From contig CAZGWK010000014.1 in assembly GCA_964529285.1 (NCBI GenBank), positions 3,279 to 67,278 of the forward strand: 64,000 bases of DNA, written 5' to 3'. The stretch is from an uncultured Actinomycetota bacterium. Its GTDB lineage: Bacteria > Actinomycetota > Geothermincolia > Geothermincolales > RBG-13-55-18. Numbering within the stretch: the first letter of the stretch is position 1; each line of letters opens with the position of its first letter. Of the stretch, positions 1,711 through 46,250 are shown one piece after another. Under the pieces are notes generated by a model. The model was not told the DNA's origin and searched no databases. It was given only the letters and a program-made list of their open reading frames with translations. The translations under genes and the position numbers were made by a program.

Positions 1711-1721
1711 GTCGTATGCTT

Positions 1722-26346: not shown

Positions 26347-26347
26347 G

Positions 26348-27742
26348 TCATCTACCGCCCTCTGGATCCTCGAGGCCTCCCCTTCTGTCCAGGAACCTCT
26401 CTATCTTGCTGCGCCGCCGCGGAGAGTTCACCGGCCAGTTCTCGGGCATGTATTTCTCGTAGCCCACCAGGGGGTTGACGGTGCAGCTGACCTTTGTGGC
26501 CTCGAAGATGGAGAGCAGGCAGTTACAGCATCGAGTGCATCTCACGATATCCTTCACGCGGCCGGCCCTGACCTTTTTCGGCCAGTCGGGATCGGCCACC
26601 AGCGCGCGCGCCAGGGAGATTATATCCGTCACGCCCTCCTCTATTGCCCTGACGGCGTTGGCGGGATCGTGTATTCCCGGGACCAGTACGGGGATGTCGA
26701 AATGTTCCTTGAAGCTGCGTGCGTGCCGGTTCATCATGTCGTCCTCATAGGGAAACATGGTGTTGCAGGCGTCGTAACAGCCGGCGGAGGTGTTGATATA
26801 GTCGATATATGGCTCGCACATCTTCAGCACTTCCAGCACCGCCTCGTGATGCAAGCCGCCGGGCAACTCCTCGTCGCCGGATATGCGCATGCCGATGCAG
26901 AAGTCCTCGCCGCAGGCATCTCTCGCCTTCCTGAGCATGTTGACGATGTGACGAGCCCGGTTCTCCAGGCTGCCCCCGTACTCGTCCTTCCTGCGGTTGG
27001 TCCGGGGAGAGAGAAAATTCGCGCCCAGGTATCCGTGGGAGGTATGGAGTTCGACGCCGTCACCCTCCATCTCCTTGACCAGGAGAGCCGCCGCGGCGAA
27101 CCTGTCCTCCAGGTAGACGATCTCGTGGTGTTCCAGGGCCCTGGGTATCTCGCCGTCGATGAGGGACCTTATCTTGGGGCTTCTCTCGCCGATCAAGTCA
27201 TAGACCATCTTCTCGAAGGCATAGTACTCATCGTCGCTCAACCCCTCCACGACGTCGATATCAATGAGCTTCATCTCATCCGGGAAACGCGACCGCAGCC
27301 CCTTGTAAAAGGACCGCACCGAATAGCGCATGTCCACCTTGTGAGCGACGGCGGAGGGTGCGGCGGAGGGCACACCGCTGGCCACGTGATGCTTTCCCTG
27401 ATATCCGAAACCGGTCATCAGCTGGCATATGACCTTGCAGTCGTAGTCATGCACCGCTCGCGCCATCTCGTTGAAGATGCGGCCGTAGCGGAGATCGCTC
27501 ATGCGCGCGTTGACGGTATGGGAGGTGCCATGCCAGTCGTCGGAGATGGGCACGGTGGCCTCGGTGATAACGGCGCTCACACCTCCCCTGGCCCTGGAGA
27601 CGTACCAGGCCTGGGTCTGTTCGTCCCCGAAACCCTCCGGATCGGACATGATCATATTCATGGGCGACATCACCAGGCGGTTCTTGAGCTCCAGTTTCCC
27701 GTTGAGCGAGATGGGTTCGAAAAGCAAGTCATAGCCTGACAT
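26348..27742 (-). CDS. OYE/FadH-like FMN oxidoreductase with C-terminal [4Fe-4S] motif, lacking the FAD/NAD(P)H domain (paralog 1, 464 aa)
   Basis: N-terminal LKNRLVMSPMN OYE motif, HTSHGYLGANFLSPRTNRRKDEYGGS, and the cluster motif CTRCCNC...C..NP. The protein ends about 45 aa later. Confidence 0.85.
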   Translation of the reverse strand: MSGYDLLFEPISLNGKLELKNRLVMSPMNMIMSDPEGFGDEQTQAWYVSRARGGVSAVITEATVPISDDWHGTSHTVNARMSDLRYGRIFNEMARAVHDYDCKVICQLMTGFGYQGKHHVASGVPSAAPSAVAHKVDMRYSVRSFYKGLRSRFPDEMKLIDIDVVEGLSDDEYYAFEKMVYDLIGERSPKIRSLIDGEIPRALEHHEIVYLEDRFAAAALLVKEMEGDGVELHTSHGYLGANFLSPRTNRRKDEYGGSLENRARHIVNMLRKARDACGEDFCIGMRISGDEELPGGLHHEAVLEVLKMCEPYIDYINTSAGCYDACNTMFPYEDDMMNRHARSFKEHFDIPVLVPGIHDPANAVRAIEEGVTDIISLARALVADPDWPKKVRAGRVKDIVRCTRCCNCLLSIFEATKVSCTVNPLVGYEKYMPENWPVNSPRRRSKIERFLDRRGGLEDPEGGR

Positions 27743-27838
27743 CTTGCCCCTCCTTAAAATCCGTGGCCGGTCGTATCGACAGGGCCCGCGTACGGTACCG
27801 CGCCGCTTGAGCCGAGAAGGATCGCTCCGGCAGCCATC

Positions 27839-28654
27839 TCATACCCCCTCCATCCTCTCCCTGGCCAGATCGACGATGCCCTTGACCCCCTCGCCGCGCA
27901 TTATGTCTTGAAACTCGCGGTCGGCCTGGTGGCAGTGGGCGAGGATATCCATCTCCGAGCCGAGGACGATGGCGTCCCTGACCCCCAGGCGGTCGTAGAT
28001 AAAACGGAAACAGAACTTACCCAGCCGCACCGTCTCCGGCAGGATCCTGGAGATTATCTCGGCCGTCTCCAGGACATGGTCCTCGAGGCGGTCTCGCGGC
28101 AAGCATTTATTGACCAGTCCGCAATCCTCCGCTTCCCGTCCGTTGAATCCCTTGGTTATCAGGAGCTCCTTCGCCTTGCGCATGCCTATGATCCAGGGAA
28201 GGATGAGAGAGGGAGAGAAGGCGACGCTTACGGTTGAGATGGGCCAGTATGTGAACACGGATTCCTCGGAGCAGAAGGCTGCGTCCGCGAAGCAGCTCAG
28301 CTCTATTCCTCCCGCTATGGCCGTGCCGTCGATCTTGCAGATAACCGGCTTGCTGTAATCCCACCAGCGCTGGTACCAGTCCCGCCTGAGAAATTCCAGG
28401 AATTCCCTCCAGGATTCCTGGGTGGTGGGCGGCGAACCGACGGGGATCTCCTCGGAGATATCATGTCCCGCGCTGAACACCGAACCCTCGGCGTCCAGGA
28501 TCACCACCCTGCATTCCTCGTTCCTCTCGGCCTTTGCCATGGCGTCCCAGACCTCGGACATGAGCTGCTTGCCGAGAGCGTTTCGGCGACCGGGGTCGTT
28601 GAGGGTCAGGCGCGATACGACGCCCTCGCTGAAAAGGATCTTCTCGTATTCCAT
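27839..28654 (-). CDS. Enoyl-CoA hydratase/isomerase (crotonase) family protein
   Basis: LNDPGRRNAL, VVILDAEGSVFSAGHD and GTAIAGGIELSCFADA oxyanion-hole regions. AGGAGGAGG RBS. Confidence 0.85.
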   Translation of the reverse strand: MEYEKILFSEGVVSRLTLNDPGRRNALGKQLMSEVWDAMAKAERNEECRVVILDAEGSVFSAGHDISEEIPVGSPPTTQESWREFLEFLRRDWYQRWWDYSKPVICKIDGTAIAGGIELSCFADAAFCSEESVFTYWPISTVSVAFSPSLILPWIIGMRKAKELLITKGFNGREAEDCGLVNKCLPRDRLEDHVLETAEIISRILPETVRLGKFCFRFIYDRLGVRDAIVLGSEMDILAHCHQADREFQDIMRGEGVKGIVDLARERMEGV

Positions 28655-28830: not shown

Positions 28831-28880
28831 ATAGCTACATAGTTTTGTGGGAGTTTTATATAGTATGCGGGAGCAGCGAG

Positions 28881-29735
28881 ATGGAGGAAGCCAGAGGAAC
28901 GGACCTGCGCATATCCGACCTGGAGAGGATCACGGGGACAGGCAGGAGCACGATCCATTATTACCTGCGCCGGGGTCTTCTTTCCGCGCCCAGGCGGTCC
29001 GGCAGGACCATGGCCTATTACGACCAGGAGCACGTGAAGGACCTCAAGGCCATCAGGAAATGGCGCAGGGAGGGTTACCCGCTCACCATGATCGAGAGGA
29101 AGCTCCAGGAGGCAAGAAAACGGAAGGGCGGCGGGGGAGGTGGCGGGGAGTCCGTACGCACGGGTAGAAGGCAGCTGATCATGGACGCGGCGGTCGGTGT
29201 GTTCGCCCGCAAGGGCTACCACAAGGCCAGGATCAGCGATATAACCAGTGCCGCCGGGGTCGGCTACAGCACCTTTTACCTCTATTTCCCCGATAAACTT
29301 GACCTGCTGGCGCAGAGCGTGGACGAGATCCTCCAGGCCATGTTCGCCGACGTGATAGAGGAGATAAGGCACGAGACCGATCCCCTGAAGCGCTTGAGGA
29401 AGAGGGCCGAGGTGGCCGTGGTAGCGCACCCCGAATTCGTCGACATCCTTTCGGTGCTGCGGGGAACCACGGAGGAGGAACCGCGTCTCGAGGCGAAGCG
29501 CAGGGAACTCTACGAGTACATAGCCGAGCACGTCGGGAGGGACCTCGAAAGGGCCGTCCAGATGGGCCTGCTGCCCCCTATGGACGTGGAGATGACGGCG
29601 TTCATGCTGGTGGTAGGGGTGCTCGAATCCGCGGCCCTTCTCACCAGGAAGGGCCGGGAGTCCGAAGCGTACCGGCTGCTGGACTGCTTTCAGGATATGC
29701 TTCTTCCCCGCGGGAAGCCCCTTCAGCCCTTATGA
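28881..29735 (+). CDS. MerR-type HTH fused to a full TetR/AcrR regulator (paralog 1)
   Basis: N-terminal LRISDLERITGTGRSTIHYYLRRGLLSAPRRSGRTMAYYDQEHVKDLKAIRKWRREGYPL (MerR HTH). A Gly7 linker follows, then IMDAAVGVFARKGYHKARISDITSAAGVGYSTFYLYFPDK (TetR HTH) and a ligand-domain-sized C-terminus. Confidence 0.8.
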   Translation: MEEARGTDLRISDLERITGTGRSTIHYYLRRGLLSAPRRSGRTMAYYDQEHVKDLKAIRKWRREGYPLTMIERKLQEARKRKGGGGGGGESVRTGRRQLIMDAAVGVFARKGYHKARISDITSAAGVGYSTFYLYFPDKLDLLAQSVDEILQAMFADVIEEIRHETDPLKRLRKRAEVAVVAHPEFVDILSVLRGTTEEEPRLEAKRRELYEYIAEHVGRDLERAVQMGLLPPMDVEMTAFMLVVGVLESAALLTRKGRESEAYRLLDCFQDMLLPRGKPLQPL

Positions 29736-29852: not shown

Positions 29853-30866
29853 CTAAACGCCCACTCTTCTCTGCGAGGTATCCACTCCCAGAAGCCTGGC
29901 GAGGTTGAGGCCGAAGATCTTGGCGCGGTCCTCGTCGCTGAGGGCCGGGTAACCGTAGCCCTCCTGCATATCCTCGGGGAACTGGAAATCGCGCAGCCCC
30001 TGCACCGCTCCCTTGAGCTGCATGCCGAAACCCGCGTAGTCGGTGCCCCAGATGATGCGGTCCGGTCCCACGAAGCGCATGGCCTCGCCCAGGATCCTGG
30101 CGAACTTGCGCGGTGCCGAGGCGGCCCAGGGCACCAGCAGGGACAGGCAGGGATAGACATTGGGATGACCCAAGGCTACCATGTTGAGGTCGTCGCAGTA
30201 GGGATAGCCCATATGGAAGGCGACTATCTTGAGGTCGGGGAAGTCCCGCGCAACGTCGTCGAGCTGGATGGGAAGGGCGTACTTGCTCTTTCCCGGCGGC
30301 ACCCAGCAGAAGCCGGTGTGGATGTCCAGGACGATGTCCAGCTCCTCCGCTTTGGCGTAGAAGGGCCACAGGTCGGGGTCGTTGATATAGGTATCCTCGG
30401 GAGGGTAGAACTTGAAGATCTTCGCTCCCCTCTCCTTGACCCAGTACTCCAGCTCCCAGACGGTGTTCTTCACCCCCTTGAACTTGATGGGGGAGATGTT
30501 GGGCTGGTACATGAAGCGGTCGGGGTGGGCGTCGGCCACCCTGGCCATCTCGCCGTTGGTGACCCAGCGGCTGGTGTAGCCGGTGGTGTCCATCATGGAC
30601 TCCGGCAGCAGGCAGGCGATGTCCACCCCGTACTTGTCCATGTACGCGAGGAGGGCCTCCGGGTCCAACTGCTTGGTAAGCTCCTTGGGTTCCATCCCCT
30701 CCAGCATCTCCGGTTTGATGCCCATGATGAAGGGAAGCTTGATGGCGTCAATGGCCCGCCACCACATCTGCACCCCGGGGAAGTGGTTGATGGGCTCCAT
30801 ATCCCCGATGAGATGTGCCTCGGGGTCGATCTTGAAGAAATCGTCCCTCTCGAATCCGTCGCTCAT
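29853..30866 (-). CDS. Amidohydrolase_2 family protein (metal-dependent hydrolase/decarboxylase fold)
   Basis: KIFKFYP, LDIHTG, VAFHMGYP and WGTDYA strand-end motifs of the PF04909-type TIM barrel. AGGAGGAGGAG RBS. Confidence 0.75.
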   Translation of the reverse strand: MSDGFERDDFFKIDPEAHLIGDMEPINHFPGVQMWWRAIDAIKLPFIMGIKPEMLEGMEPKELTKQLDPEALLAYMDKYGVDIACLLPESMMDTTGYTSRWVTNGEMARVADAHPDRFMYQPNISPIKFKGVKNTVWELEYWVKERGAKIFKFYPPEDTYINDPDLWPFYAKAEELDIVLDIHTGFCWVPPGKSKYALPIQLDDVARDFPDLKIVAFHMGYPYCDDLNMVALGHPNVYPCLSLLVPWAASAPRKFARILGEAMRFVGPDRIIWGTDYAGFGMQLKGAVQGLRDFQFPEDMQEGYGYPALSDEDRAKIFGLNLARLLGVDTSQRRVGV

Positions 30867-30926
30867 GATCTCCTCCTCCTGGTCTCTCCGACTTCGAATC
30901 CGTTTCTCTATATACGCAATGCCGTA

Positions 30927-33095
30927 TCATCCGGACAGACTGCTGGTATTCACCGTTGACCCTTCGTCTCCTTTCGACCTGTATATCCTGCACAGCAGCG
31001 CCCTCAGCTGGTAGGTGCCCATGGCGGGGTCGTAAGGAGGTCCGTTGTCCGTGAGCAGGTTGGCGTTGGACCTCCAGATGCCGTGCTCCGGTCCCTCTTC
31101 CTCGGGGAACCACCAGCCGTGCTCCACGTGCACCACGCGGGGGTCTATTCCCTCGCTGAGACTGGCCCGCTGCTCGATCCTGCCCCGGCGCGTCTCTATA
31201 CACACCCAATCGTCTTGCGAGATGCCGTGTTCCGCTGCCGTGCGCGGGTGGATCTGTACCAGTGGATGGGGATGCCTGCGCCGCAGCGATGGTATCTGGC
31301 GGTGCTCGGAATGGAAGAAACAGGGCACCCTGCCGCCGGTGATAAGTATATAGGGGTATTCCCGCGCGAGTTCCGGGGTGCTGCTCGGGCTCTCCGGCGG
31401 TTCCCGGTAACTGGGGAGGGGGTCGTATCCCAGGTTCTCCAGTATGCTGGAGTAGAGCTCCACCTTGCCGGAGGGGGTCAGAAAGCCCCCCATGTCTTCG
31501 TACTTGCGGTACTTCATGGGAGGAAAGACGAAGCCTTCTTCCTTGAGCTGGTCGAAGTCGACACCCAGCGGCTCCAGCTGAAAGTCCAATACCTCCCGCA
31601 GCGGCTCCCCGCCCCTCTCCAGGCCCATCCTGCGGGCCAGCGCGATCATGATCTCCTCGTCCTGCCTGGCCTCTCCCACCTCCACCAGTTTCCGCTGGGC
31701 CAGCACCATCAGGTCGGCCACGATGGGGAAACCCTGGACGCAGTCCACCTCCAGCCAGGTGGCCGCGGGCAGGACGATGTCCGCCAGCTCGGCGGTGGGG
31801 GTCATGTAGATGTCCGTGACCACCAGGAGGTCCAGCTCGAGCAGGGATTCGCGCACCTGCCGTGGATTGGCGTAGGTGGCCAGGGCGTTGTTGCCGAAGA
31901 TGAGGAAGGCCTTGATCGGGTAGGGCTCGCCGCTGCGCATGGCCTCGAAGAGGGTGGGGACATGCGAGGAGGGGAGAAGTGCCTGGGGGCCGGCCAGCAC
32001 CTTGAAGGTGTCCGCGCCCAGCCTCTTCTCCCTGGCCTCCTGGCCCAGGTTCTCGGCCAGGTAGGGAAAGATGTTTATGGGGTGGCTGCTGAATATCCAG
32101 CCTCCGGGGATGTCTATGTTTCCCGTGAGTGCCGGCAGCATGGCCAGGGCCCGGCCGGTCTGGAAGCAGTTGGGGGTATGCTCGAAGGCCACCCCCCAGT
32201 CCAGGGCGGCGGGTTTGGACGCGGCGAACATGCGCGCCGCCTCCCTGATGCGCTCCGCCGGTATCCAGGTGATCTCCTCCGCCCACTGCGGCGTATATTC
32301 CTCCACGCGTTCGGCCAGGCGGTCGAAGCCGGAGGTCCACCGGCTCACGAAATCCCCGTCGTATAGTTCCTCGTTTATGATGGTGTTTATCATGCTCAGG
32401 GCGAGGGCGTCGTCGCTGCCCGGCCGGAGCTGCAGCCAGAGGTCGGCCTTGCGCGCCGTCTCGGTCTTCCGGGGGTCGATCACTATGAGCCTGGAGCCCC
32501 TCTTGATGGCGTCCCTCATCGTGAACTGCACCTCGCCGTCCGGACCGGTGATCAGGGGATTGTGGCCCCAGACCAGTATGCATGCGGGGGCGGTATCGCC
32601 GTAATAGTCGCAGAAGAGGAAGTCGCCGTAAGTGAGCACGCTTATGTTCAGCCGCGGTATGAAGCATTGGGCCGTGCCCGGCTCGCACCAGTTGGGCGTG
32701 CCCAGCGCGTTGGCGAACCTGGCCACGAAATGGTAGTGGTGCCTGCCCGTGCCGGTGCCCAGAGCGATGCTCTCCGGACCATACTCCCCCTTGATGCGGT
32801 TCAGCTCGCCCGCGATATGGCCCAGGGCCTCGTCCCACGAGATGCGCTCCCAGCGGCCCTCCCCTCTCTCTCCTGCCCGCCTCATGGGATGGGTCAGGCG
32901 GTGGGGATTATATACGTGTTCAAGGCTGGCCAGGCCCTTGGCACAGAGTCTGCCCCGGTTCAAGGGGGAATCCGGGTCGCCCTCGATTTTTACTATCTTT
33001 CCGTCTTTCAACTGCAGGAGCACGCCGCAACCCCCGTGGCACATCTTGCAGGAGCTCCTGTAAATCCCGTCTTCGACCAGCGCATCGCCTTCCAT
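30927..33095 (-). CDS. Cytoplasmic molybdopterin (Mo/W-bisPGD, DMSO-reductase superfamily) enzyme, paralog B, 722 aa
   Basis: N-terminal C-K-M-C-H-G-G-C...C-A-K-G 4Fe-4S motif. WLQLRPGSDDALAL and a C-terminal molybdopterin-binding barrel (ILITGGR...HSEHRQIP...VCIETRRG). No twin-arginine leader. Confidence 0.85.
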   Translation of the reverse strand: MEGDALVEDGIYRSSCKMCHGGCGVLLQLKDGKIVKIEGDPDSPLNRGRLCAKGLASLEHVYNPHRLTHPMRRAGERGEGRWERISWDEALGHIAGELNRIKGEYGPESIALGTGTGRHHYHFVARFANALGTPNWCEPGTAQCFIPRLNISVLTYGDFLFCDYYGDTAPACILVWGHNPLITGPDGEVQFTMRDAIKRGSRLIVIDPRKTETARKADLWLQLRPGSDDALALSMINTIINEELYDGDFVSRWTSGFDRLAERVEEYTPQWAEEITWIPAERIREAARMFAASKPAALDWGVAFEHTPNCFQTGRALAMLPALTGNIDIPGGWIFSSHPINIFPYLAENLGQEAREKRLGADTFKVLAGPQALLPSSHVPTLFEAMRSGEPYPIKAFLIFGNNALATYANPRQVRESLLELDLLVVTDIYMTPTAELADIVLPAATWLEVDCVQGFPIVADLMVLAQRKLVEVGEARQDEEIMIALARRMGLERGGEPLREVLDFQLEPLGVDFDQLKEEGFVFPPMKYRKYEDMGGFLTPSGKVELYSSILENLGYDPLPSYREPPESPSSTPELAREYPYILITGGRVPCFFHSEHRQIPSLRRRHPHPLVQIHPRTAAEHGISQDDWVCIETRRGRIEQRASLSEGIDPRVVHVEHGWWFPEEEGPEHGIWRSNANLLTDNGPPYDPAMGTYQLRALLCRIYRSKGDEGSTVNTSSLSG

Positions 33096-33153
33096 CAGAC
33101 CTCCGTTCTATCCCACGCAATCGACTGTCGGGTTCGCCGCTCTGTGCGGACCG

Positions 33154-34266
33154 TCATCTCACCAGTTCGATCAGCTTGTCCGTGTTCTTCGTCTTCCTGA
33201 ACGCGGGCTTCTCGGCCATGATCTCCTCGCGGCCCAGCACCTCTCCCGTACGCTCGTAGTGGTCGAGCACCTCGCGGGGGCCGTAGCGGTGCAGGGGGCA
33301 GGAGTTGATGCACACCGCGCAGGTATGCCACCCGGTGAAGAAAGCCCAGCACTTGAGGTCGTTTATCTTGCGCTTGTATACGCCCCGCCACCACATGGGT
33401 TTCTCGGGGATGGCCTTCGCCGGGCACTTGGCCACGCACAGGAGACAAGATTCGCACAACTCGGCCAGGCCGTAGTCCCCGGGTTCGTCCAGGGGCAGGT
33501 CGGAGTCCACGGTGATCAGGCCCCAGCGCTGCCGGGGACCGAACTGCGGGGTGATCACGCCGCCGAAGGCCCCCAGCTCCCCCAGGCCGGCGGTGATAGC
33601 ATGGGTAGGATAAACCACGGCGCCGTCGAAGGGGATGCGGGCCGAGCAGGATACGCCCTGACGGCGTATGAAGTTGGCCAGCTTGTGCGTGCCCCTGCTC
33701 GCCCTGCGGTATACGTCGTAGTCAGGATAATTGCGCAGGCGGTAGTTGGGGGACTGCAGAAGGAATTCCTTGCGCATCTCCATACCCAGGACGACGGCCA
33801 CGTTATAGGGAAACTTGCCGTCGTTGCCCCCGGTCACGAAGCGGCGGTCCAGGAGGGTGACCCCGCAGAGCGCGAAACCCAGGGAGGCTGCATAATCCTT
33901 GATGTCCTGTTTGAGCCCCACGGGATCGGGCCTTTGACCCGAATATTTTTTGACCAGCTTCCTGTCCACCATACCCTGCAGCGCCTCCATATAGATCAGG
34001 TCTGGAAGGGTCGGGGAAATCTCGGGTATCACCTCTCTCTTGTGGTGGACGAAAACGTAGCTCAACTTGTTGGAGCCGCGCAGGGGAGGTACGTTCTCCT
34101 GCAGGGGATCCACCTCGGAATAGAGGTTCAACTCCTCCGGCCTGTACTCCAGGTTGGGGATGAGGGCGACGCGGTCCTGTTCTATGTCGTTGGGGCGGAA
34201 CTTGACGCGCTGGCCGCGGTATTCCCTCAAACGCAGCTGCTTTCTTTCGCCTTTGTTCATGTTCAT
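33154..34266 (-). CDS. Reductive-dehalogenase / epoxyqueuosine-reductase (RdhA/QueG) superfamily Fe-S protein, no TAT signal
   Basis: IKDYAASLGFALCGV, AVVLGMEM and AGLGELGAFGGVITPQFGPRQRWGLITVDSDLPLD. Cluster motifs are CESCLLCVAKCP and C-x10-CAVCINSCP. The start ATG overlaps the stop of the upstream Mo/W gene (ATGA). Confidence 0.7.
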   Translation of the reverse strand: MNMNKGERKQLRLREYRGQRVKFRPNDIEQDRVALIPNLEYRPEELNLYSEVDPLQENVPPLRGSNKLSYVFVHHKREVIPEISPTLPDLIYMEALQGMVDRKLVKKYSGQRPDPVGLKQDIKDYAASLGFALCGVTLLDRRFVTGGNDGKFPYNVAVVLGMEMRKEFLLQSPNYRLRNYPDYDVYRRASRGTHKLANFIRRQGVSCSARIPFDGAVVYPTHAITAGLGELGAFGGVITPQFGPRQRWGLITVDSDLPLDEPGDYGLAELCESCLLCVAKCPAKAIPEKPMWWRGVYKRKINDLKCWAFFTGWHTCAVCINSCPLHRYGPREVLDHYERTGEVLGREEIMAEKPAFRKTKNTDKLIELVR

Positions 34267-36443
34267 ACATCACTCCCGTCAGGTTTCTCATCATATCCTT
34301 CGCGCTTCGTTCTCCGGGAGGTCTGGGAATCAGGGCTTTTATATACCCTGCACAGCGCGCTGCGCAGGCATTCCGATCCGGAATCAGGGTCGTACTCCAT
34401 CTCCCCGAAGAGGAGGTTTACGTTACTGCGCCTCCACCCGTGTTCGGGCGGATCTTCCTCCGGGAACCACCAGGCATGCTCGGCGCTGACCACGTCGGGG
34501 GCGATGCCGTCGGACAGCCTGGCGCGCATCCTTACCCTGTCGCGGGGCGTCTCCACCCATACCCAGTCCCCCTCGCCGATATCCAGGGATGCCGCCGTCT
34601 CGGGATGTATCTCCACCAGCGGATCGGGGTGCTTGCCTCTCAAGCTTGCGATCTGCCTTCCCTCGCTGTGAAAGAATTCCCTTATCTTGGCTCCCGTGGT
34701 CAGGATGAAGGGGTAGTCGCCGTACAGTTCCGGGCGGGAGAGCGGAGATAGTGGCGGCTCGCGGTAGACGGGCAGCGGGGATACCCCCATCGACTCCAGG
34801 ACGCTCGAATAGATCTCGAACTTGCCGGAGGCGGTCGCAAAACCCTGCTCGCGGTACTTGCGGTAGCGCATCTCTCCCTGCAGTATTCCCAGCTCGCAGA
34901 ACGCATCGAAGTCCATGCCCGTCTCCTCAAGCGCCCAGTCGAGGTGCTCCCGCCAGCTCTGCCAGGGGAAGGCCTCCCAAAGATCCAGGCGGTGCGCGAG
35001 ATCGAAGATAACCTCCCGGTCGTCACGCGCCTCGCCGACCTGGGCCACCTTCACCCGCGCCAGCACGCACCAGATCTTGTGCAGGTTGACCACGTCCTCT
35101 TGCTCCAGCCAGGTGGCGGCGGGGAGCACCAGGTCCGCCAGCTGGGCGGTGGGGGTGAGAAAGAAGTCCGAGACCACCAGGTATTCCAGCAGGCGCAGGG
35201 CCCTCTCTGTCTGCAACGGATCGGTCATGGTGAGCAGGGGATTGGAGCCCACTATCCACAAGGCCCGCATGCGGTAAGGGTCTCCTTCCACGATGGATCG
35301 CCAGAAGGTGGGGGGATGGGTGATGGGGCATACGGGATACCTCCCACCGTCCACCTCCCGGGATACCGCCTCCGGCGGACGGAACTGCAGCCCCGGCACC
35401 TCGAGGTTCATGAACAGCGAGCGCTGCTTTACTCCCGCCGGTGGGACCCATAGGACGTCGCCTCCCGGACGGTCGATGTTCCCGCTGAGGGCGCGCAGGA
35501 TGAGCAGAGAACGGGCGGTCTGGGCGTTGCAGGCGCTCATGTCCACGGCGTTTCCCCACTGTATGCAGGCGGGCGAGGTGGTCGCATAGGTGCGGGCGGC
35601 GGCGCGGATCTCCTCCGCATCCAGGCGGGTTATGGGCGCGGCCCATTCGGGAGTGAAGGGCGCTACATGCTCCACCAGCCGCTCGTATCCCACCGTGTAG
35701 CCGTCCACGAAATCGCGGTCCACCAGTCCTTCGGAGATGATGGTGTTGATCATGGCCAGGGCCAGGGCGCCGTCGCTCCCGGGCCGCAGCTGCAGCCAGT
35801 GATCGGCCTTCTCCGCCGCGTCGATGCGCCTGGGGTCCACCACGATGACCTTGTCCGCCTCCCTCAAGGCCCTCTGGAACATACCCCCGCACATGCCGTC
35901 GGAGGCGCCGCTGCGCGCGATGTCACATCCCCAGAGCAGGATGCAGGCGGGATACTCTCCACCGGACCCGTAGATGTCGCAGATGGGGAGCTGCCCCAGG
36001 GTATAGAGGCTCACCAGCCAGCGCGGAAGATAGCAGAGGTGCGCCACGCCGGTGAAATTGGGAGTGCCGAAGGCGTTGGCGAAGCGCGTGGTGTATCCGG
36101 TATAGGGCCGCCCTGTTCCCTGCAGCATGGCGAAGTATTCGGGTCCGCTCTCCTCCTTTATCGCGGCAAGGCGCCGGGCCATCTCGTCCAGGGCATCGTC
36201 CCACGAGATGCGCTCCCACCTGTTCTCCCCGCGCTCTCCCGCCCGGCGCAGGGGATGAAGCACGCGGTCTGGATGGTAGAGGAGCTCGGGCGACGCCTTT
36301 CCCTTGGGGCAGATGTAGCCGCGGCTGGTGGGGGAGTCGGGGTCGCCGGTCACCTCGACCACGCGGCCGTCCTCGAGGTGAACCAGCACCTGGCACACCC
36401 CGTGGCACATGCGGCAGGCCGACCTGACCACTCTATCGCTCAA
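34263..36443 (-). CDS. Cytoplasmic molybdopterin (Mo/W-bisPGD) enzyme, paralog A, 726 aa
   Basis: C-R-M-C-H-G-V-C...C-P-K-G motif and WLQLRPGSDGALAL, with a C-terminal barrel as in paralog B. TTG start about 11 nt after AAGGAG. No TAT leader. Confidence 0.85.
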   Translation of the reverse strand: MSDRVVRSACRMCHGVCQVLVHLEDGRVVEVTGDPDSPTSRGYICPKGKASPELLYHPDRVLHPLRRAGERGENRWERISWDDALDEMARRLAAIKEESGPEYFAMLQGTGRPYTGYTTRFANAFGTPNFTGVAHLCYLPRWLVSLYTLGQLPICDIYGSGGEYPACILLWGCDIARSGASDGMCGGMFQRALREADKVIVVDPRRIDAAEKADHWLQLRPGSDGALALAMINTIISEGLVDRDFVDGYTVGYERLVEHVAPFTPEWAAPITRLDAEEIRAAARTYATTSPACIQWGNAVDMSACNAQTARSLLILRALSGNIDRPGGDVLWVPPAGVKQRSLFMNLEVPGLQFRPPEAVSREVDGGRYPVCPITHPPTFWRSIVEGDPYRMRALWIVGSNPLLTMTDPLQTERALRLLEYLVVSDFFLTPTAQLADLVLPAATWLEQEDVVNLHKIWCVLARVKVAQVGEARDDREVIFDLAHRLDLWEAFPWQSWREHLDWALEETGMDFDAFCELGILQGEMRYRKYREQGFATASGKFEIYSSVLESMGVSPLPVYREPPLSPLSRPELYGDYPFILTTGAKIREFFHSEGRQIASLRGKHPDPLVEIHPETAASLDIGEGDWVWVETPRDRVRMRARLSDGIAPDVVSAEHAWWFPEEDPPEHGWRRSNVNLLFGEMEYDPDSGSECLRSALCRVYKSPDSQTSRRTKREGYDEKPDGSDV

Positions 36444-36477
36444 ATCTTGCCATCTCCTTACGCACTACACCGCATAT

Positions 36478-37617
36478 CTACCTGTACTTGAGCACGGACT
36501 TAAACATCGCCTTCGCGTTCTCCGGTTTGGAATCGATGGGCATGGTGCATCCCGAACTGAGGATGAACCCGCCGTCCGCCCCTACTTCGGTGATTAGTCT
36601 GCGGCAGTACTCGTCCACCTCCTCCGGCTCCCCGAGTTTGAGCAAGGCGGCGGGCACGTCGCCCATGATGCACATGTGGTCGCCCAGCTGGTCCTTGGCC
36701 GCGAATATGTTCGAGGTGCCGTCCAGGTTCAGGATGCACTTGCCTTTGGGCAGGTTTTTCAGATAAGGGTAGAAACCCGTCCAGTCGCTGTCGAAATGAA
36801 GCAGCGGGGTGATGCCTTTGCCCACCCAGTACTCGCACATCTCCTGCCATTCCGGCAGGGCGAATTCCTCGAACTGCTTGGGGCTGAGGAAGGATGCGCT
36901 GGTCCGCGTCCCCCCCATGAAAACGCGCTTGAGGCCGCTGAGCTTCACCATCATCATCCCCTGCAGCTGCATCGTCTTCATGAGGGCACGGCTGGCCTCT
37001 TTGACTTCCTCGGGGTGGCGGAAGAGGTCCAGGATGAAATCGTTGAAGGAGCGCAGGAAGAGAGAGATGTATTCCATGGGGGTGAAAACGATATTGTAAG
37101 CGACCATGGATTCGACCCCCTTGCTCTGCCACCGCCGCATGGAGCGCCTGGCCTTCATGATGTCCGCGCTCACGCCCGCGAAGGTCTTGAGCATCCCTAA
37201 CGGGTTTCCCAGCTGGGGATTGGATAACTTCATCTTGTCCATGATCCAGCGCAGAGGGCCGCGCTGCTTTATCTGCTCGTATTCCTCCCACTCCATGACC
37301 GTCTTCTCCACGAACTGGAACTGGCCGTCTGCGGGTTCCCCGCCCACCCCCGGCATGATGGGAGGTGTGGGGAAGATCACCTGCATTATCCTGCCGAGTC
37401 CGGCATAGGAGAGGTTCTGCCCGTCGATGGGACCCAGGTCGCGCAGGGTCTTCTCCAGCGCCGCGTCCGCCTTCTGGATGTCGAAGAACATGTCGTGCTG
37501 GGTGATTCCGCCGTAACGGCCGGCGAAGAAATCGATGATGGGCACCACGGGCACGCGGTCCGGCTTGCCCAGCCTGACGGCGGTGTCGATGCGTTCGCGA
37601 GCGGTCATGTCGGCCAC
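36478..37617 (-). CDS. Uroporphyrinogen-decarboxylase (URO-D) family protein lacking the MT2 zinc motif
   Basis: N-terminal RERIDTAVRLGKPDRVPV and C-terminal GGFILSSGCTMP fit the URO-D/MtaA fold. The position of the HxC zinc ligands reads LLHFDSD. GTG start after AAGGAGGTGA. Confidence 0.7.
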   Translation of the reverse strand: MADMTARERIDTAVRLGKPDRVPVVPIIDFFAGRYGGITQHDMFFDIQKADAALEKTLRDLGPIDGQNLSYAGLGRIMQVIFPTPPIMPGVGGEPADGQFQFVEKTVMEWEEYEQIKQRGPLRWIMDKMKLSNPQLGNPLGMLKTFAGVSADIMKARRSMRRWQSKGVESMVAYNIVFTPMEYISLFLRSFNDFILDLFRHPEEVKEASRALMKTMQLQGMMMVKLSGLKRVFMGGTRTSASFLSPKQFEEFALPEWQEMCEYWVGKGITPLLHFDSDWTGFYPYLKNLPKGKCILNLDGTSNIFAAKDQLGDHMCIMGDVPAALLKLGEPEEVDEYCRRLITEVGADGGFILSSGCTMPIDSKPENAKAMFKSVLKYR

Positions 37618-37662: not shown

Positions 37663-39201
37663 TCAGTCCTGGAGCGCTTCTCGCACCTGGCGGCGCAGCA
37701 CCTTGCCCAGGGCCGAAGTGGGGATGCTCTCCATGAACACAACCATTTTCGGGCACTTGTAACCGGCGATCTTCTCCCGGCACAAGGCGATCAGTTCCTC
37801 CTCTGTGGCCTCGGCATCCTGCCTCAAAGAGACGACGGCGGTCACCTCCTCGCCCCACTTCTCGCTCTTGAGGCCCACCACCGCAGCCGTCAGCACCGCG
37901 GGGTGCTCGTAGAGCACCTGCTCCACCTCGAAGGGATAGACGTTCTCGCCCCCGGTGATGATCATATCGTTCTTGCGGTCCACGATGTAGATGAACCCGT
38001 ACTCGTCCACCGTGGCCAGGTCGCCGGTGTGCAGCCAGCCGCCGCGCAGTGTCCGCGCGGTCAGTTCGGGGTCCTTCCAGTATCCGCGCATGACGTTCTT
38101 GCCGCGGATTACGATCTCCCCGATATCGCCCACTGGCACCTCATTATCCTCTTCGTCCACCACCCTCACCTCGGTGACCAGGGTCTCGCGCCCGCAGGAG
38201 TTGATGCGCCGCACCACTTCCGGCGGCCCCTCCAGCCGGCACTGGTCCTCTTCCAGCAGTATGGTGCCCAGGGGCGCGGCCTCGGTGAGGCCGTATCCCT
38301 GCTGGAAGATGGGGCCGAACCTGGCGATGCAGCGCCTGAGCACCTCCTCCGGCATGGGGGCGCCTGCGTAGGAGAAATACCTGATGCTGGAGAGGTCGTA
38401 TTTACCCGCGTCGGGGAAATCCAGGAGCCAGGAGAAGAGCACCGGCACCATGTTGATGTGGGTGACCTTCTCCCTCTCCGCCGTGGCCAGGATCTCGCTG
38501 AAGTCGAAGCGCCGGGCGATGACCGCCCTGCATCCTGCGAGGTGGTGGATGAGTATGGGCCACCAGGCGGTATGGAAGATGGGCAACACCTGCAGGGTGG
38601 TGTAGTGAGGCTCGAACGCCAGAGCCAGCCCCATACCGATGCCCGTGGTCAGGTAATTGCGGTTGGTGATCATCACCCCCTTGGGCAGGCCGGTGGTGCC
38701 GCCGGTGTACTGCAGGTGGCAGAGGTCGTCCTCAGAGACTTCCGCTTCGGGCTCGGCGTCTGACGCCCCCGCGAGCATATCCTCGTAGTCCATCCAGCCC
38801 TCCGCCTCCGCGTCGAAGACGATGTGATTGCGGACATTCTCAAGTTGGGAAAGGATCTGTTTCGCCATCTCGAGGGTGTTGTGGTCCACGACGAGCACCT
38901 CGGCGTCGGAGTGGTTGATGATGTAAACAAGCTCCTCAGGCGCCAGCCGGAAGTTCAGGGGGACGGCCACGGCCCCCAGCTTGGAGGTGGCGTAATATAT
39001 CTCCACCAGGCGGTGGCAGTTGAGGGCCAGGGTGGCCACCTTGGTGCCCTTCTTCGCGCCAAGATCCCTGAGGGCGTTGGCAAGGCGGTTCACCCTCTCG
39101 TTGAGCTGCTTCCAGGTCAGCCTGACGTCGTCGCAGACCACGCACTCCTTGTCCGGGTCGAGGCGGGCATGTTTTCTGGGGATATCGCCCAAGGTAAGCA
39201 T
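37663..39201 (-). CDS. AMP-dependent acyl-CoA synthetase
   Basis: YTGGTTGLPKGVMITNRN motif. Start chosen at MLTLGDIPRK with GGAGGGAAGGAG upstream; the track ORF extends to 39369. Confidence 0.9.
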   Translation of the reverse strand: MLTLGDIPRKHARLDPDKECVVCDDVRLTWKQLNERVNRLANALRDLGAKKGTKVATLALNCHRLVEIYYATSKLGAVAVPLNFRLAPEELVYIINHSDAEVLVVDHNTLEMAKQILSQLENVRNHIVFDAEAEGWMDYEDMLAGASDAEPEAEVSEDDLCHLQYTGGTTGLPKGVMITNRNYLTTGIGMGLALAFEPHYTTLQVLPIFHTAWWPILIHHLAGCRAVIARRFDFSEILATAEREKVTHINMVPVLFSWLLDFPDAGKYDLSSIRYFSYAGAPMPEEVLRRCIARFGPIFQQGYGLTEAAPLGTILLEEDQCRLEGPPEVVRRINSCGRETLVTEVRVVDEEDNEVPVGDIGEIVIRGKNVMRGYWKDPELTARTLRGGWLHTGDLATVDEYGFIYIVDRKNDMIITGGENVYPFEVEQVLYEHPAVLTAAVVGLKSEKWGEEVTAVVSLRQDAEATEEELIALCREKIAGYKCPKMVVFMESIPTSALGKVLRRQVREALQD

Positions 39202-39233: not shown

Positions 39234-40619
39234 CTATATCAACGGCAGACCTTCCGCCTTGGCCATGAACTTCTCCACCTTGCCTTTGACCGCCGGGGCG
39301 TTCACGCGCCATAACTCGGGTATGTAGCGCTCGAAGCCAGCGGTGGGATTGACGCTGCAGCGCAGCCACTTATGCTCGAAGAGGTTCATCAGGCAGGTGT
39401 TGCAGCGTGTGCACTTCACGATGTCCTGCACCCGTCCCGCCTTCACTTTGGCTGGCCAGAACGGGTCGGCGATGGCCTGGCGCCCCAGCATCACAAGGTC
39501 GGTAACACCGTCCTTAAGCGCCTTCGCGGCTGCACGCGGGGTCTTGAAGGTGGGCGTCATCACCGGCAGGCCGGAGGCCTCCTTGAATCCGGGAGCGTAC
39601 TTGAGCATCTCCCCCTCGCCGTCCGGCTCGAAGGCCGCCGGGTTCTCGTAGCATCCCTGGGAGATACTCACGTAGGTGAGGCCCTCCCGCGCGGCCATGG
39701 CCACGAACTGCTTCATCTCCTCGTTACCGGCGCCATCGGGCATGAGCTCGTCGCCGGAGAAGCGCGCTCCCAGCACGCGGTCGGGCCCGATGCGCGCCCG
39801 TATCTTGCGGATTATATTGAGAAGGAAACGGGCGCGGTTCTCCACGCTGCCGCCGTATGCGTCGGTCCTCTTGTTGGAGCGGCCCGAGAGGAACTCGTGG
39901 ATGAGGTAACCGTGGGGGCTGTGCAACTCCACGCCGTCGAAGCCGTAGCGAAGAGCTTCCGCGCTAATCTCCGCCATCTTCTCCTCCATGAATACGATCT
40001 CGTCTATAGACAGCTCGCGCGGCACCTCGCCCTTCCACACCTTGAGCAGGGAAGGGTCCTCGTTTATAAGCACCTGCTCCAGCACCTTCTCCAGCTCCGC
40101 GTATTGCTCGTCATCCATGGCGCGTATGGTATCCAGCCCTCCCAGGTCCTTGACCAGCTTGGGCGCCAGGCGCTTCAGTTGTTTCTCCCAACCCTTGTTA
40201 AGGTTGCGCAGGTCGATGCGCATGGGTATGGGGGACGGCGCTCCGGCGGCCAGGTGGGGAGCGGCCGCGGAAGCATGGCCCTGGCGGCCGAATCCCGGTG
40301 AGAGCTGTATGAAGACCTTGGCCCCGAAGGCGTGTATGTTGTCGGCCATCTCGCCCAGCCTGCGCCCGTACCTCTCGTCGCTGAAGAGATGGGTGTTGAG
40401 GTGGTCCGACCCCCGCCAGGTGTAAGGGTTGACCACGGTGGCGTCGGTGACGATAAGCCCGAAGCCCCCCTTGGCGCGGGCGGCGTACCAGGCCAGCCAT
40501 TGTTCGGAGTTGTAGCCGTCCGCGTCGCAATAGACCATGTTCATGGGGGCCATGACCACGCGGTTCTTCAGCTTCACGTCCCCGATCTTGAACGGCTCGA
40601 AAAGTATGTCGTAATCCAT
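39234..40619 (-). CDS. OYE/FadH-like FMN-[4Fe-4S] oxidoreductase lacking the FAD/NAD(P)H domain (paralog 2, 461 aa)
   Basis: LKNRVVMAPMN, HSPHGYLIHEFLSGRSNKRTDAYGGS, and CTRCNTC...C..NP near the C-terminus. Confidence 0.85.
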   Translation of the reverse strand: MDYDILFEPFKIGDVKLKNRVVMAPMNMVYCDADGYNSEQWLAWYAARAKGGFGLIVTDATVVNPYTWRGSDHLNTHLFSDERYGRRLGEMADNIHAFGAKVFIQLSPGFGRQGHASAAAPHLAAGAPSPIPMRIDLRNLNKGWEKQLKRLAPKLVKDLGGLDTIRAMDDEQYAELEKVLEQVLINEDPSLLKVWKGEVPRELSIDEIVFMEEKMAEISAEALRYGFDGVELHSPHGYLIHEFLSGRSNKRTDAYGGSVENRARFLLNIIRKIRARIGPDRVLGARFSGDELMPDGAGNEEMKQFVAMAAREGLTYVSISQGCYENPAAFEPDGEGEMLKYAPGFKEASGLPVMTPTFKTPRAAAKALKDGVTDLVMLGRQAIADPFWPAKVKAGRVQDIVKCTRCNTCLMNLFEHKWLRCSVNPTAGFERYIPELWRVNAPAVKGKVEKFMAKAEGLPLI

Positions 40620-40791: not shown

Positions 40792-41955
40792 CTAGAAAGA
40801 CTTGGGTAGTCCGTAGCACTGCGCGATGAAATTCTTGCTCATCTCGTTGGACAGGGGGCTGAAGACCATCTGCTGCGAGTCGCGCCAGTAGCGCTGGATG
40901 TCCGCCTCCATGGTCACCCCGTAGCCGCCGAATATCTCCATGCCCACGGTGGCCGCGTCGAGGGCCATCTGGGAGGCGTAGAGGCCGGCCATGGTCGCCT
41001 CGATGTGGTAAGGCCTGCCGGTATCGGCCAGCCAGGCACATTTGTATACCAGGTTGCGTGCGTTCTCGATGCCTACCGCCATGTCCGCCAGGTAATGCTG
41101 GATGATCATGAACTGCCCGATGGGTTTGCCGAACGCCTCGCGCTGCTTGGCGTAGGCGAGACAGTCCTCGAAGATCTTTTCCGCCAGCCCCACCGATATC
41201 ATGGCCACGCCGATACGCTCGGGGTTGAGGGTGGAGAGCACGTCGTACCAGCCGTTGTTGAGCTGACCGAGCAGGTTGGTCTTGGGCACCCGCACGTTGT
41301 CGTAGAAGACCTCGCAGGAGCCGCAGCAGTGCGTGCTAACCTTGGGGATGGTGCGGATGTCTATGCCCGGGGCGTTCGCCGCTACCATGATGATAGAGAG
41401 CGCGTGCGAGCGCTTGGGGTTGTCGCGGTCTGTTATGGCCACCGTGGTCAGGTAGTCCGCCACGTGCGCCCCGGTGATGTAGATCTTCTGCCCGCTGATG
41501 ACGAAGTCGTCCCCGTCGGAGTCGGCGTAGGTGGATATCGCCCCCAGGATGTCGGTGCCCCCCGCGGGCTCGGTCAGCGCGAGGGAGAACCTGAGCTTGC
41601 CCTCGGCGATGCGGGGAAGGAACTCCCGCTTCTGTTCCTCGCTTCCCAGCTCCACTATGGGCCTGGTGCCGAAGCCGATGGTCGCCCCGACGCCGAGGGC
41701 GACCGCCGTCGAAGCCTTGGATATCTCCTCGAAGCCGACCATGGCGGTGACCATGTCGGCGCCGTCGCCGCCGTACTCCTCGGGGACCGACGCGGCGAAG
41801 AGCCCCATGGCTGCGGCCTTGTCCCACACCTCCTGGGGCATGAAGTCCAGTGTCTCCTCCCACTCGCGTATCTTCTCGCTGGTTATCTCCTTGGCGCAGA
41901 ACTCGCGCACCGCGGCGCGCATGAGTTCCTGCTCTTGGGTGAACGCAAAGTCCAT
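40792..41955 (-). CDS. Acyl-CoA dehydrogenase
   Basis: ACAD three-domain layout: ALTEPAGGTD, ...GQKIYITGA..., and C-terminal YWRDSQQMVFSPLSNEM. Confidence 0.9.
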   Translation of the reverse strand: MDFAFTQEQELMRAAVREFCAKEITSEKIREWEETLDFMPQEVWDKAAAMGLFAASVPEEYGGDGADMVTAMVGFEEISKASTAVALGVGATIGFGTRPIVELGSEEQKREFLPRIAEGKLRFSLALTEPAGGTDILGAISTYADSDGDDFVISGQKIYITGAHVADYLTTVAITDRDNPKRSHALSIIMVAANAPGIDIRTIPKVSTHCCGSCEVFYDNVRVPKTNLLGQLNNGWYDVLSTLNPERIGVAMISVGLAEKIFEDCLAYAKQREAFGKPIGQFMIIQHYLADMAVGIENARNLVYKCAWLADTGRPYHIEATMAGLYASQMALDAATVGMEIFGGYGVTMEADIQRYWRDSQQMVFSPLSNEMSKNFIAQCYGLPKSF

Positions 41956-44261: not shown

Positions 44262-44290
44262 CTGCTGATACCTCCTGGGATATGTGCCAC

Positions 44291-45985: not shown

Positions 45986-46060
45986 GATCATCTCCCTTCC
46001 CTTCATGCCTCCGGTAGAGGTCCGGTGGCCTTGCCGTATAAGCGCTCATTAACGCTGATG

Positions 46061-46214: not shown

Positions 46215-46250
46215 AACTTAACAGTAACTTAATAGTTGCAGGAGCAGGAA

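Follow-up and report, generated by a model that had tools for sequence, protein, structure and literature searches.

A reductive-dehalogenase-like protein encoded beside molybdenum/tungsten enzymes in a catabolic gene cluster of an uncultured Actinomycetota bacterium

Cytoplasmic homologs of the reductive dehalogenase RdhA that lack both a twin-arginine translocation (TAT) leader and the RdhB anchor are known from genomes of subsurface Dehalococcoidia and Desulfatiglans, and the roles proposed for them are speculative (PMC6129605). Subsurface genomes are rich in such anchor-less homologs, and what they do has been asked for a long time. Catabolic RdhAs do not need a TAT leader or an RdhB anchor. 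Here we analyze a homolog of this kind, RdhL, which is encoded in a 64,000-nt stretch of DNA from an uncultured Actinomycetota bacterium (contig CAZGWK010000014.1; hereafter the window). The gene for RdhL (33154..34266; 370 aa) lies between those for two Mo/W-bis(pyranopterin guanine dinucleotide) (bis-PGD) enzymes, A (34263..36443) and B (30927..33095). On either side of these three are genes for a protein of the uroporphyrinogen decarboxylase (URO-D) superfamily (36478..37617) and for an Amidohydro_2 metal-dependent hydrolase-fold protein (29853..30866); all five are on the minus strand.

In acetylene hydratase, the essential Asp13, which lies beside the second cysteine of the FS0 cluster, activates the W-bound water. 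The organohalide-respiration complex of Dehalococcoides combines RdhA with the bis-PGD protein OmeA, a hydrogenase and RdhB; it is membrane-bound, TAT-exported and free of quinone. Catechol dehydroxylases are reported to have acetylene hydratase as their closest relative, include a TAT-less, smaller and soluble Gordonibacter type with a 4Fe-4S partner, and have homologs in environmental degraders of aromatic compounds (PMC7028382). CdmB is a zinc-free, corrinoid-dependent methyltransferase I (MT I) and a close relative of aromatic O-demethylases (PMC13222342). ThnN and BamU are amidohydrolases of unassigned role that occur in anaerobic naphthalene and benzoate CoA clusters alongside Old Yellow Enzyme (OYE)-type reductases (PMC12016498). 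The literature searched contained nothing specific that joins RdhA-like, acetylene-hydratase-like, OYE or amidohydrolase genes, and no description of the RdhL family, its catalytic-site conservation, its coupling to Mo/W enzymes or its catabolic operon. The original prediction for this locus had likewise proposed that no characterized pathway has this synteny, and none that matched was found in the same literature.

Window genes were called with guidance from GC content at third codon positions (GC3) and scanned with Pfam and NCBIfam profiles. All five predicted minus-strand open reading frames (ORFs) were recovered, and profile hidden Markov model searches confirmed their assignment to the URO-D, Mo/W, RdhA-like and Amidohydro_2 families. 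The best NCBIfam match of RdhL was the reductive dehalogenase model TIGR02486 at 79 bits, below the curated cut-off of 160, and the score against QueG TIGR00276 was 32 bits with a cut-off of 200. No PF13486 (Dehalogenase) domain was found in RdhL by the Pfam scan; true RdhAs in the same protein search carry it. The motifs CESCLLCVAKCP and AGLGELG..ITPQFGPR were both present, and all other motifs quoted in the original prediction were found as well, except that the second cluster motif of RdhL is spaced C-x9-C-x2-C-x3-CP (C-x9-CAVCINSCP) and not C-x10. The two [4Fe-4S] motifs comprise C271/274/277/281-P and C306/316/319/323-P. In alignments to PDB sequences, Tyr186 of RdhL corresponded to Tyr246 of PceA and Tyr426 of NpRdhA, and Arg247 corresponded to Arg305 of PceA and Lys488 of NpRdhA. 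Across 26 family members, down to 35% identity, Tyr186, Arg247 and all eight cluster cysteines, with both cluster motifs, were invariant, and the AGLGELG...ITPQFGPRQRW block was almost wholly conserved.

An AlphaFold2 model of RdhL (mean predicted local distance difference test, pLDDT, 80.7; predicted template modeling score, pTM, 0.84) was compared with solved structures by Foldseek. PceA, NpRdhA and the membrane RDH complex came first (E ~1e-13 to 1e-14, probability 1.0, TM 0.53-0.58), and the model superposed on full RdhA structures over ~280-290 columns. QueG (E ~1e-6) and CblC ranked behind the RdhAs; identity as QueG was rejected on this ranking and on the low profile score. Profile, PDB-alignment and Foldseek evidence together place the product of 33154-34266 within the RdhA/QueG superfamily, as had been proposed. 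Its N-terminus has no TAT leader, since an RR motif with a hydrophobic stretch after it is missing; a small membrane protein of the RdhB type was not found among the Pfam-scanned genes of the operon. RdhL is predicted to be cytoplasmic and without a membrane anchor. The model shares with NpRdhA/BhbA and PceA the fold, the two [4Fe-4S] motifs and the Tyr and Arg/Lys positions, and RdhL shares with NpRdhA a cytoplasmic location, the absence of TAT and RdhB, and a catabolic rather than respiratory context. Unlike NpRdhA/BhbA and PceA, to which it is only 20-25% identical, RdhL is much shorter, has a unique N-terminal region of ~150 residues, lacks a fused NAD(P)H reductase domain and is partnered with Mo/W enzymes, and its substrate is not necessarily an organohalide. 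On profile, alignment and model evidence, RdhL is a true RdhA-superfamily protein of a new, discrete and rare clade whose active site looks intact.

The extent of this clade was assessed in a clustered search of 5.8 billion proteins and in a separate survey of 185,579 species genomes. About 70 clusters scored at least 232 bits, one outlier scored 159 and the remainder, ordinary RdhAs, scored 103 or less, which delimits RdhL as a discrete family. Relatives at 59-92% identity came almost only from metagenome-assembled genomes (MAGs) labelled Actinomycetota, Geothermincolia and Anoxymicrobiaceae among them, apart from two MAGs called no more than 'uncultured bacterium' and one that bears the label Acidimicrobium ferrooxidans. 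Among the genomes, the best match was 'Actinomycetota bacterium Zod_Metabat.1188' (RdhL 92% identical). A clade at ~40% identity comprised MAGs labelled Thermodesulfobacteriota, Proteobacteria/Pseudomonadota, Syntrophorhabdaceae, Desulfatiglandales and Chloroflexota. Databases annotate RdhL only as 'ferredoxin' or '4Fe-4S protein'.

Two groups of more distant relatives are recorded here as separate observations; loci are designated by L numbers. In Chloroflexota MAGs (L002-L006, L026-L029), RdhL paralogs of ~40% identity stand alone. In the two contexts inspected among L002-L006, the neighbors are xanthine-dehydrogenase-type, Amidohydro_1, OTCase-like, carbamate-kinase, PALP and M20 peptidase genes; this setting looks like anaerobic purine or N-heterocycle catabolism, and members of the RdhL family may act on heteroaromatic rings too. 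The next-closest relatives include many RdhA-like genes of Promethearchaeota/Asgard MAGs (L037-L058), which are 31-36% identical over residues 120-325. MT I homologs have been reported to be enriched in Asgardarchaeota (PMC13222342).

Enzymes A and B are clear paralogs, as predicted, with 49% identity over 715 residues. Their CRMCHGVC, CKMCHGGC, AHLCYLPR and AQCFIPR motifs were all present; the FS0 cysteine motif begins at residue 10 in A and at residue 16 in B. Reading of the N-termini confirmed that neither A, B nor RdhL has a twin-arginine leader, and the predicted cytoplasmic location of all three was upheld. Both enzymes carry Molybdop_Fe4S4, Molybdopterin and Molydop_binding domains, and by far the closest solved structure was acetylene hydratase 2e7z (358 bits, E = 7e-106 for A; 418 bits, E = 7e-124 for B), followed by PsrA (276 and 262 bits for B and A) and FdhF (250 bits for B). 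The FS0 cysteines, Lys48 and the metal ligand Cys141 of acetylene hydratase are conserved, and the cysteine in AHLCYLPR and AQCFIPR that had been put forward as candidate Mo ligand aligned to Cys141. The Asp13 position is His in every MoA- and MoB-type sequence examined (A and B representing the two types). At the hydrophobic ring positions, Ile14 and Trp179 are replaced by Gly, positions 113 and 472 fall in gaps, the MoA type has Tyr and the MoB type Phe in place of Ile142, and only Trp293 is kept.

Several characterized identities could be rejected for A and B. Acetylene hydratase was dismissed because Asp13 and the ring as a whole (Ile14, Ile113, Ile142, Trp179, Trp293, Trp472) are not conserved. 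For formate dehydrogenase, the ligand Cys is followed by Tyr or Phe and not by His, and the TIGR01591 scores of 286/339 bits fell far below the cut-off of 666. For PsrA/PhsA, NF012032 gave 300/350 bits against a cut-off of 694, no leader is present, and no FeS beta or membrane subunit of the PsrB/PsrC type was found in the cluster genes scanned. Both proteins scored below every NCBIfam equivalog cut-off and lack the selenocysteine/Cys-His pair of formate dehydrogenases; we predict, in agreement with the original proposal, that they are cytoplasmic bis-PGD enzymes outside any characterized clade.

The MoA and MoB types are separate ortholog groups. The MoA type is rare: with library proteins clustered at 50% identity, only two representatives reach 58% or more before identity falls to 45%. 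No fewer than 150 representative clusters match MoA better than acetylene hydratase does (>385 versus 358 bits). Members of the MoB type, 62-66% identical, are spread widely over MAGs labelled Desulfobacteraceae, Thermodesulfobacteriota, Chloroflexi and Thermoleophilia. A and B resemble the acetylene hydratase of Pelobacter acetylenicus in size, in their predicted cytoplasmic location and in being single subunits with FS0, and differ from it in the His at Asp13 and in the acetylene-binding ring. Because catechol dehydroxylases are reported to be closest to acetylene hydratase and their soluble members have a 4Fe-4S partner, reductive dehydroxylation is the nearest functional analog that we can suggest. 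The likeness to Dadh, Hcdh, Cadh and Dodh is one of description, namely kinship to acetylene hydratase and a TAT-less Gordonibacter type with an FeS partner (PMC7028382); these enzymes act on hydroxylated aromatic acids, which would fit the pathway context in the window. Unlike them, the Mo enzymes here would be partnered by a 370-aa RdhA-like protein rather than a small ferredoxin, in a catabolic CoA context rather than a respiratory one.

The URO-D-like protein matched the Pfam URO-D family at 85 bits over its C-terminal two thirds only. Its best PDB match was CdmB 9rui (E = 8.6e-32), uroporphyrinogen decarboxylase reached only E = 0.003, and the HemE model TIGR01464 gave 26.6 bits with a cut-off of 303. 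Identity as uroporphyrinogen decarboxylase was rejected on these scores, and a decarboxylase, the earlier suggestion for this protein, is the less likely reading. The H-x-C...C zinc motif of the MtaA type is replaced by HFD...SSGC, which bears out the predicted lack of a zinc motif; an alternative HxC zinc site at 'DHMC' was discarded since its His and Cys vary among orthologs. By sequence, the protein most resembles the zinc-free corrinoid MT I of the O-demethylase/CdmB type. It shares the UroD-superfamily TIM barrel and the absence of a canonical zinc site with CdmB, MtvB, OdmB, VdmB and MtoB (PMC13222342). Unlike those systems, it has no Rossmann-type corrinoid protein, methyltransferase II (MT II) or activator beside it among the window genes scanned, and RdhL is the only predicted corrinoid protein nearby. 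A second full-length URO-D gene of the MtaA/CmuA type (58957..59955, plus strand; Pfam 148 bits) lies 21 kb from the cluster; its zinc motif is intact (HICG...STGC), and it is possibly an MT II-type methyltransferase.

The start of the RdhL gene overlaps the stop of the gene for A in an ATGA, which was read in the DNA as predicted. We compared gene neighborhoods across 31 non-redundant RdhL-related loci. A Mo enzyme gene lies directly beside the RdhL gene (within 72 bp or overlapping) in 10 of the 31, with three Mo subtypes and several lineages represented (L001/L021, L007, L011, L013, L014, L017, L020, L094, L034). In L001 and L021 the order is reversed, with RdhL before Mo; L094 holds a URO-D/MoB-type/RdhL/DUF1638 set together with a classical pair of URO-D and B12-binding corrinoid protein; and in L034, a Syntrophorhabdaceae MAG, RdhL and a third Mo subtype form an isolated overlapping two-gene unit. 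Most relatives hold one Mo enzyme, of the A type, and some hold none. Genes for A and B flank RdhL in four loci only, namely the window, L014, L017 and L020, and the arrangement was therefore rejected as a conserved unit. In L020 it was hidden because the Mo-enzyme genes are fragmented (5181-9872): the pieces that flank RdhL are divided among several ORFs, probably as a result of assembly frameshifts.

Amidohydro_2 lies within 10 kb of RdhL in 16 of the 31 loci and directly adjoins it in five. The widest RdhL partners are Amidohydro_2, OYE, CoA ligase, acyl-CoA dehydrogenase (ACAD), enoyl-CoA hydratase/isomerase (ECH) and thiolase/DUF35 genes, for which reason we regard RdhL as core and the Mo enzymes as accessory. 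The block of OYE, ligase, ACAD, ECH and thiolase-DUF35 is kept with RdhL in the ~40% clade of other phyla (L025, L030, L036, L093), and the core block of Amidohydro_2, OYE and CoA genes is conserved there with Amidohydro_2 at 74-77% identity. The proposed link to adjacent CoA-dependent genes is real and conserved across relatives. Because the same neighbors recur over the 31 loci, the gene arrangement is not due to chance. The cluster is a catabolic island conserved in uncultured anaerobic Actinomycetota and present in rearranged form in MAGs labelled Thermodesulfobacteriota or Proteobacteria, and the genetic coupling of RdhL to Mo/W enzymes of the acetylene-hydratase clade is recurrent and non-random. 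In the Actinomycetota MAG L011 (11710-19108), IclR, Cyclase (PF04199), cupin, SDR (short-chain dehydrogenase/reductase), 3HCDH and two DAPG_hydrolase-family genes adjoin the RdhL cluster and resemble genes of phloroglucinol/phloretin degradation; such genes stand beside the cluster only in L011, and a phloroglucinol pathway was rejected for the window.

The five genes form the middle of a 12-gene minus-strand operon that runs from 46006 down to 29853 and is read as one unit because the gaps are short or the genes overlap. The order is thiolase-like, DUF35, OYE_a, ECH, ACAD, OYE_b, CoA ligase, URO-D-like, MoA, RdhL, MoB and Amidohydro_2. The thiolase-like protein (Thiolase_C_1; 44783..46006) matched thiolase, lipid-transfer and BbsB-like NCBIfam models, all below cut-off, and has orthologs 76-81% identical in L001, L009 and L093. 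DUF35 proteins are the usual partner of thiolase-like aldolases and thiolases, and the one here (zf-ChsH2 + OB_ChsH2_C in Pfam; 44291..44764) is kept beside the thiolase in L001, L009, L010, L025, L030 and L093. OYE_a (42942..44270, start approximate; ~430-440 aa; Pfam Oxidored_FMN 201 bits) is followed by ECH_1 (41962..42771; Pfam and NCBIfam) and a Pfam-assigned acyl-CoA dehydrogenase (40792..41955), whose top NCBIfam matches (generic ACAD, acryloyl-CoA reductase, glutaryl-CoA dehydrogenase) were all below cut-off. OYE_b (39234..40619; Pfam; 461 aa) has PDB matches that include 2-naphthoyl-CoA reductase (NCR; E = 9e-44) and 2,4-dienoyl-CoA reductase; unlike NCR, the OYEs of the window are short (430-464 aa) and lack extra FAD/FeS domains. 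The AMP-forming acyl-CoA ligase lig_1 (37663..39201; Pfam; 512 aa) scored 548 bits against the PRK06187 subfamily, above cut-off; its true start at 39201 was corrected from the longest ORF, and orthologs are 67-89% identical. Among the genes of the 22-kb cluster scanned with Pfam, none was found to encode an RdhB, an FeS beta subunit or a cytochrome, which agrees with the original prediction.

The Amidohydro_2 protein (Pfam 129 bits) is the most highly conserved partner of RdhL, with orthologs 74-88% identical across phyla and 729 matches at E <= 1e-30. The PDB sequence search returned only the uncharacterized 3irs (BB4693; E = 3e-10) and detected no similarity to characterized Amidohydro_2 decarboxylases of the LigW/gamma-resorcylate decarboxylase type, so the claim that this protein is a candidate decarboxylase found no backing in any characterized PDB decarboxylase. 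Like ThnN and BamU, it accompanies OYEs in a CoA-dependent cluster, a likeness of context. The naphthalene thn operon itself was rejected as an identity because the gene sets differ, and the pairing of OYE with amidohydrolase is a loose analogy only. In the isolate Desulfosporosinus shakirovi (GCA_020595055.1; L100, 8524-12404), an OYE_a-type flavoprotein 45% identical to that of the window stands with an Amidohydro_2 ortholog (77% identical) and a second Amidohydro_2. The neighbors there are LysR regulators, an arylsulfotransferase and two MFS transporters, with no CoA ligase and no RdhL. As the pair stands only with the second Amidohydro_2, beside arylsulfotransferase and MFS genes, this suggests that OYE_a and Amidohydro_2 could form a two-enzyme module for a free phenolic compound, for which the cultured isolate offers an experimentally accessible entry point.

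We propose that the cluster is a substituent-removal module feeding a reductive, CoA-dependent ring-degradation pathway for aromatic acids, and give this reading a probability of roughly 45%. It would probably serve to strip substituents off plant-, humus- or fungus-derived aromatic acids, namely benzoates or phenylpropanoids that are methoxylated, hydroxylated and/or halogenated. The URO-D-like protein would take off O-methyl groups, and MoA and MoB would carry out Mo/W-dependent oxygen chemistry on the ring, in the manner of catechol-type reductive dehydroxylation, with the invariant His at the Asp13 position as a candidate acid/base. A corrinoid in RdhL, fed by the two [4Fe-4S] clusters, would reductively eliminate a ring substituent, for which halide is the most conservative guess. 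The adjoining and overlapping genes suggest that RdhL and the adjacent Mo enzyme exchange electrons, probably through FS0, as a two-protein complex. A ring stripped in this way would go on to OYE enzymes for reduction, Amidohydro_2 would open or decarboxylate it, the CoA ligases would activate it, and beta-oxidation-like steps would complete the degradation. The interpretation offered by the original prediction is partly supported by these results.

A number of observations weigh against this proposal. With RdhL under the curated RdhA threshold and without PF13486, corrinoid binding is only putative. No Rossmann-type corrinoid protein (B12-binding PF02310), MT II or activating enzyme occurs beside the URO-D-like gene among the window genes scanned. 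MoB-type enzymes are mostly found without RdhL and often stand alone, and RdhL occurs without any Mo enzyme in L009, L010, L016, L025 and L030; together these loci indicate that an obligate complex is not required. RdhL also has other close neighbors, overlapping a FAD_binding_4 gene with CCG in L093 and an alpha/beta hydrolase gene in L009/L010, and directly preceding a FAD_binding_3-like gene in L007. Benzoyl-CoA reductase is absent from the scanned genes of the cluster, and the CoA ligases match a generic fatty-acyl subfamily, which leaves room for an alicyclic or aliphatic substrate. For A and B, a place in the catechol-dehydroxylase clade is only a candidate assignment, and we infer every chemical role in the cluster.

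The same variety of neighbors, namely three Mo subtypes, FAD_binding_4 with CCG and a FAD_binding_3-like gene, could mean that RdhL is a degenerate RdhA that has lost catalysis and only transfers electrons, as a di-cluster ferredoxin-like subunit serving the Mo enzymes and, at other loci, flavoenzymes. Annotation pipelines see only its Fer4 domains, its score lies below the RdhA cut-off, and such a role would mirror the small 4Fe-4S partner reported for soluble Gordonibacter dehydroxylases (PMC7028382). However, the entire RdhA core is kept, with the AGLGELG...ITPQFGPRQRW block, Tyr186 and Arg247 (near-)invariant down to 35% identity, and the model superposes on full-length RdhAs. RdhL in L009/L010 has a hydrolase and no redox partner beside it, and MoB-type enzymes usually do without it; we consider this role unlikely, while according it real weight. 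Only slightly less weight is due to the view that the genes are merely co-regulated, independent enzymes of one pathway and that the placement of RdhL between A and B is a lineage-specific accident of gene order. The few loci with that placement, the variable order (RdhL before Mo in L001) and the occurrence of each component alone elsewhere all speak for it. It does not readily account for the repeated adjacency or overlap with Mo enzymes of three subtypes, which is seen in distant lineages and in one case as a two-gene island, or for the 4-bp start/stop overlap in the window.

The isolated overlapping pair in L034, which has no other redox gene nearby, also raises the prospect of a self-contained, redox-neutral enzyme with two sites, made up of RdhL and MoA or MoB. 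Hydroxylation with water would take place at the Mo/W site, and electrons would pass through FS0 and the two RdhL clusters (three [4Fe-4S] in all) to a corrinoid that reductively removes another substituent, the leaving group being hydroxyl, methoxy or halide. The net transhydroxylation or halide-to-hydroxyl exchange would yield a meta-hydroxylated ring that OYE could reduce. The pair encodes no donor module, NAD(P)H-binding or other, and the presence of OYE-type reductases without benzoyl-CoA reductase fits the making of readily reduced resorcinol- or phloroglucinol-type rings (background in PMC10470551). The idea is pure inference, though: the coupling is without precedent, ferredoxins could dock instead, and each component occurs without the other in many genomes; we judge it improbable. 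In a related variant, the RdhL corrinoid would be the methyl acceptor for the MT I-like URO-D protein. The Mo enzymes might instead be electron-input modules that oxidize a small donor and feed RdhL, a cytoplasmic analog of OmeA-RdhA. Mo genes do adjoin and overlap RdhL, and FDH-alpha and PhsA are among the stronger NCBIfam matches, but their scores lie far below the equivalog cut-offs, Tyr or Phe replaces the formate dehydrogenase His after the ligand Cys, and acetylene hydratase rather than formate dehydrogenase is the closest structure. Two paralogous inputs around one acceptor would be odd, and MoB orthologs mostly have no RdhA-like gene, which makes this highly improbable. As in the Dehalococcoides complex, an RdhA-family enzyme would be functionally joined to a molybdopterin-family protein with no quinone involved; unlike that complex, the proteins here are all predicted to be cytoplasmic and belong to a catabolic operon.

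Among the substituent-removal proposal and its alternatives, we see a modest chance of a genuinely new two-cofactor mechanism. A two-site enzyme, if true, would swap substituents by a cofactor relay, a new mechanistic class linking bis-PGD and B12 chemistry, and would let strict anaerobes dearomatize phenolics without benzoyl-CoA reductase. The module of OYE and Amidohydro_2 may itself be an anoxic route for phenolic carbon that does without benzoyl-CoA reductase, which bears on how carbon is preserved in peat, sediments and the deep subsurface. For the question of what cytoplasmic, anchor-less RdhA homologs do, the RdhL family is a tractable case: its catalytic dyad is conserved, its catabolic operon is defined, and the Mo/W partner that recurs beside it narrows down the chemistry.

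The operon is followed by a paralogous three-gene block on the minus strand (24790..28654; Pfam) that encodes ECH_2 (27839-28654), OYE_c (26348-27742) and a second ligase, lig_2 (24790-26346). The same block occurs in L014 at 84-92% identity; within the window, lig_1 and lig_2 are 47% identical and OYE_b and OYE_c 41%. Each of the two blocks has a divergent regulator in which a MerR helix-turn-helix is fused to TetR_N (Pfam), one between the blocks (28845..29735, plus strand) and one at the thiolase end of the operon (46236..47114, plus strand); the two are 51% identical to each other. Orthologs of the former flank the cluster in L001, L009, L014 and L025, and those of the latter, at 60-64% identity, are found in L001, L009, L010 and L021. 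Such regulators flank the cluster both in Actinomycetota and in MAGs that carry the label Thermodesulfobacteriota or Proteobacteria.

The nearest separate FeS protein is encoded 25 kb away (62247..63353, plus strand) and has 368 residues with a C-terminal di-cluster ferredoxin domain. Homologs at 27-38% identity, usually duplicated, lie beside the RdhL loci L007 (13620-16078) and L095 (13924-16308). They are also found beside Asgard-archaeal RdhA-like loci, with two copies in L053 (372-2486) and one match in L037 (2077-3129). Proteins of this type are possible dedicated electron donors for cytoplasmic RdhA-like enzymes.

Other genes of the window lie outside the cluster. Directly downstream of it, a 1439-aa protein (19871-24190, plus strand) consists almost entirely of HEAT/PBS-lyase-type repeats. 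At 13105-18299 (plus strand), four tandem ORFs of ~280 aa come after genes for a PanE/ApbA-like reductase and a 4HBT thioesterase; Pfam confirmed two of the four as SDRs, and the other two carry a TGxxxGIG signature. On the other side, a 963-aa ORF with high GC3 (47592-50483, plus strand) had no Pfam or NCBIfam match and is followed by a Ser/Thr kinase and a 1150-aa GAF histidine kinase. More genes of CoA metabolism occupy positions 1-6629, encoding an AMP-ligase (22-1446), an SCP2 protein (1722-2285) and an ADP-forming CoA-ligase-like protein (2924-4366), and then a creatininase-family protein (4595-5515) and another Amidohydro_2 (5667-6629) near the window start.

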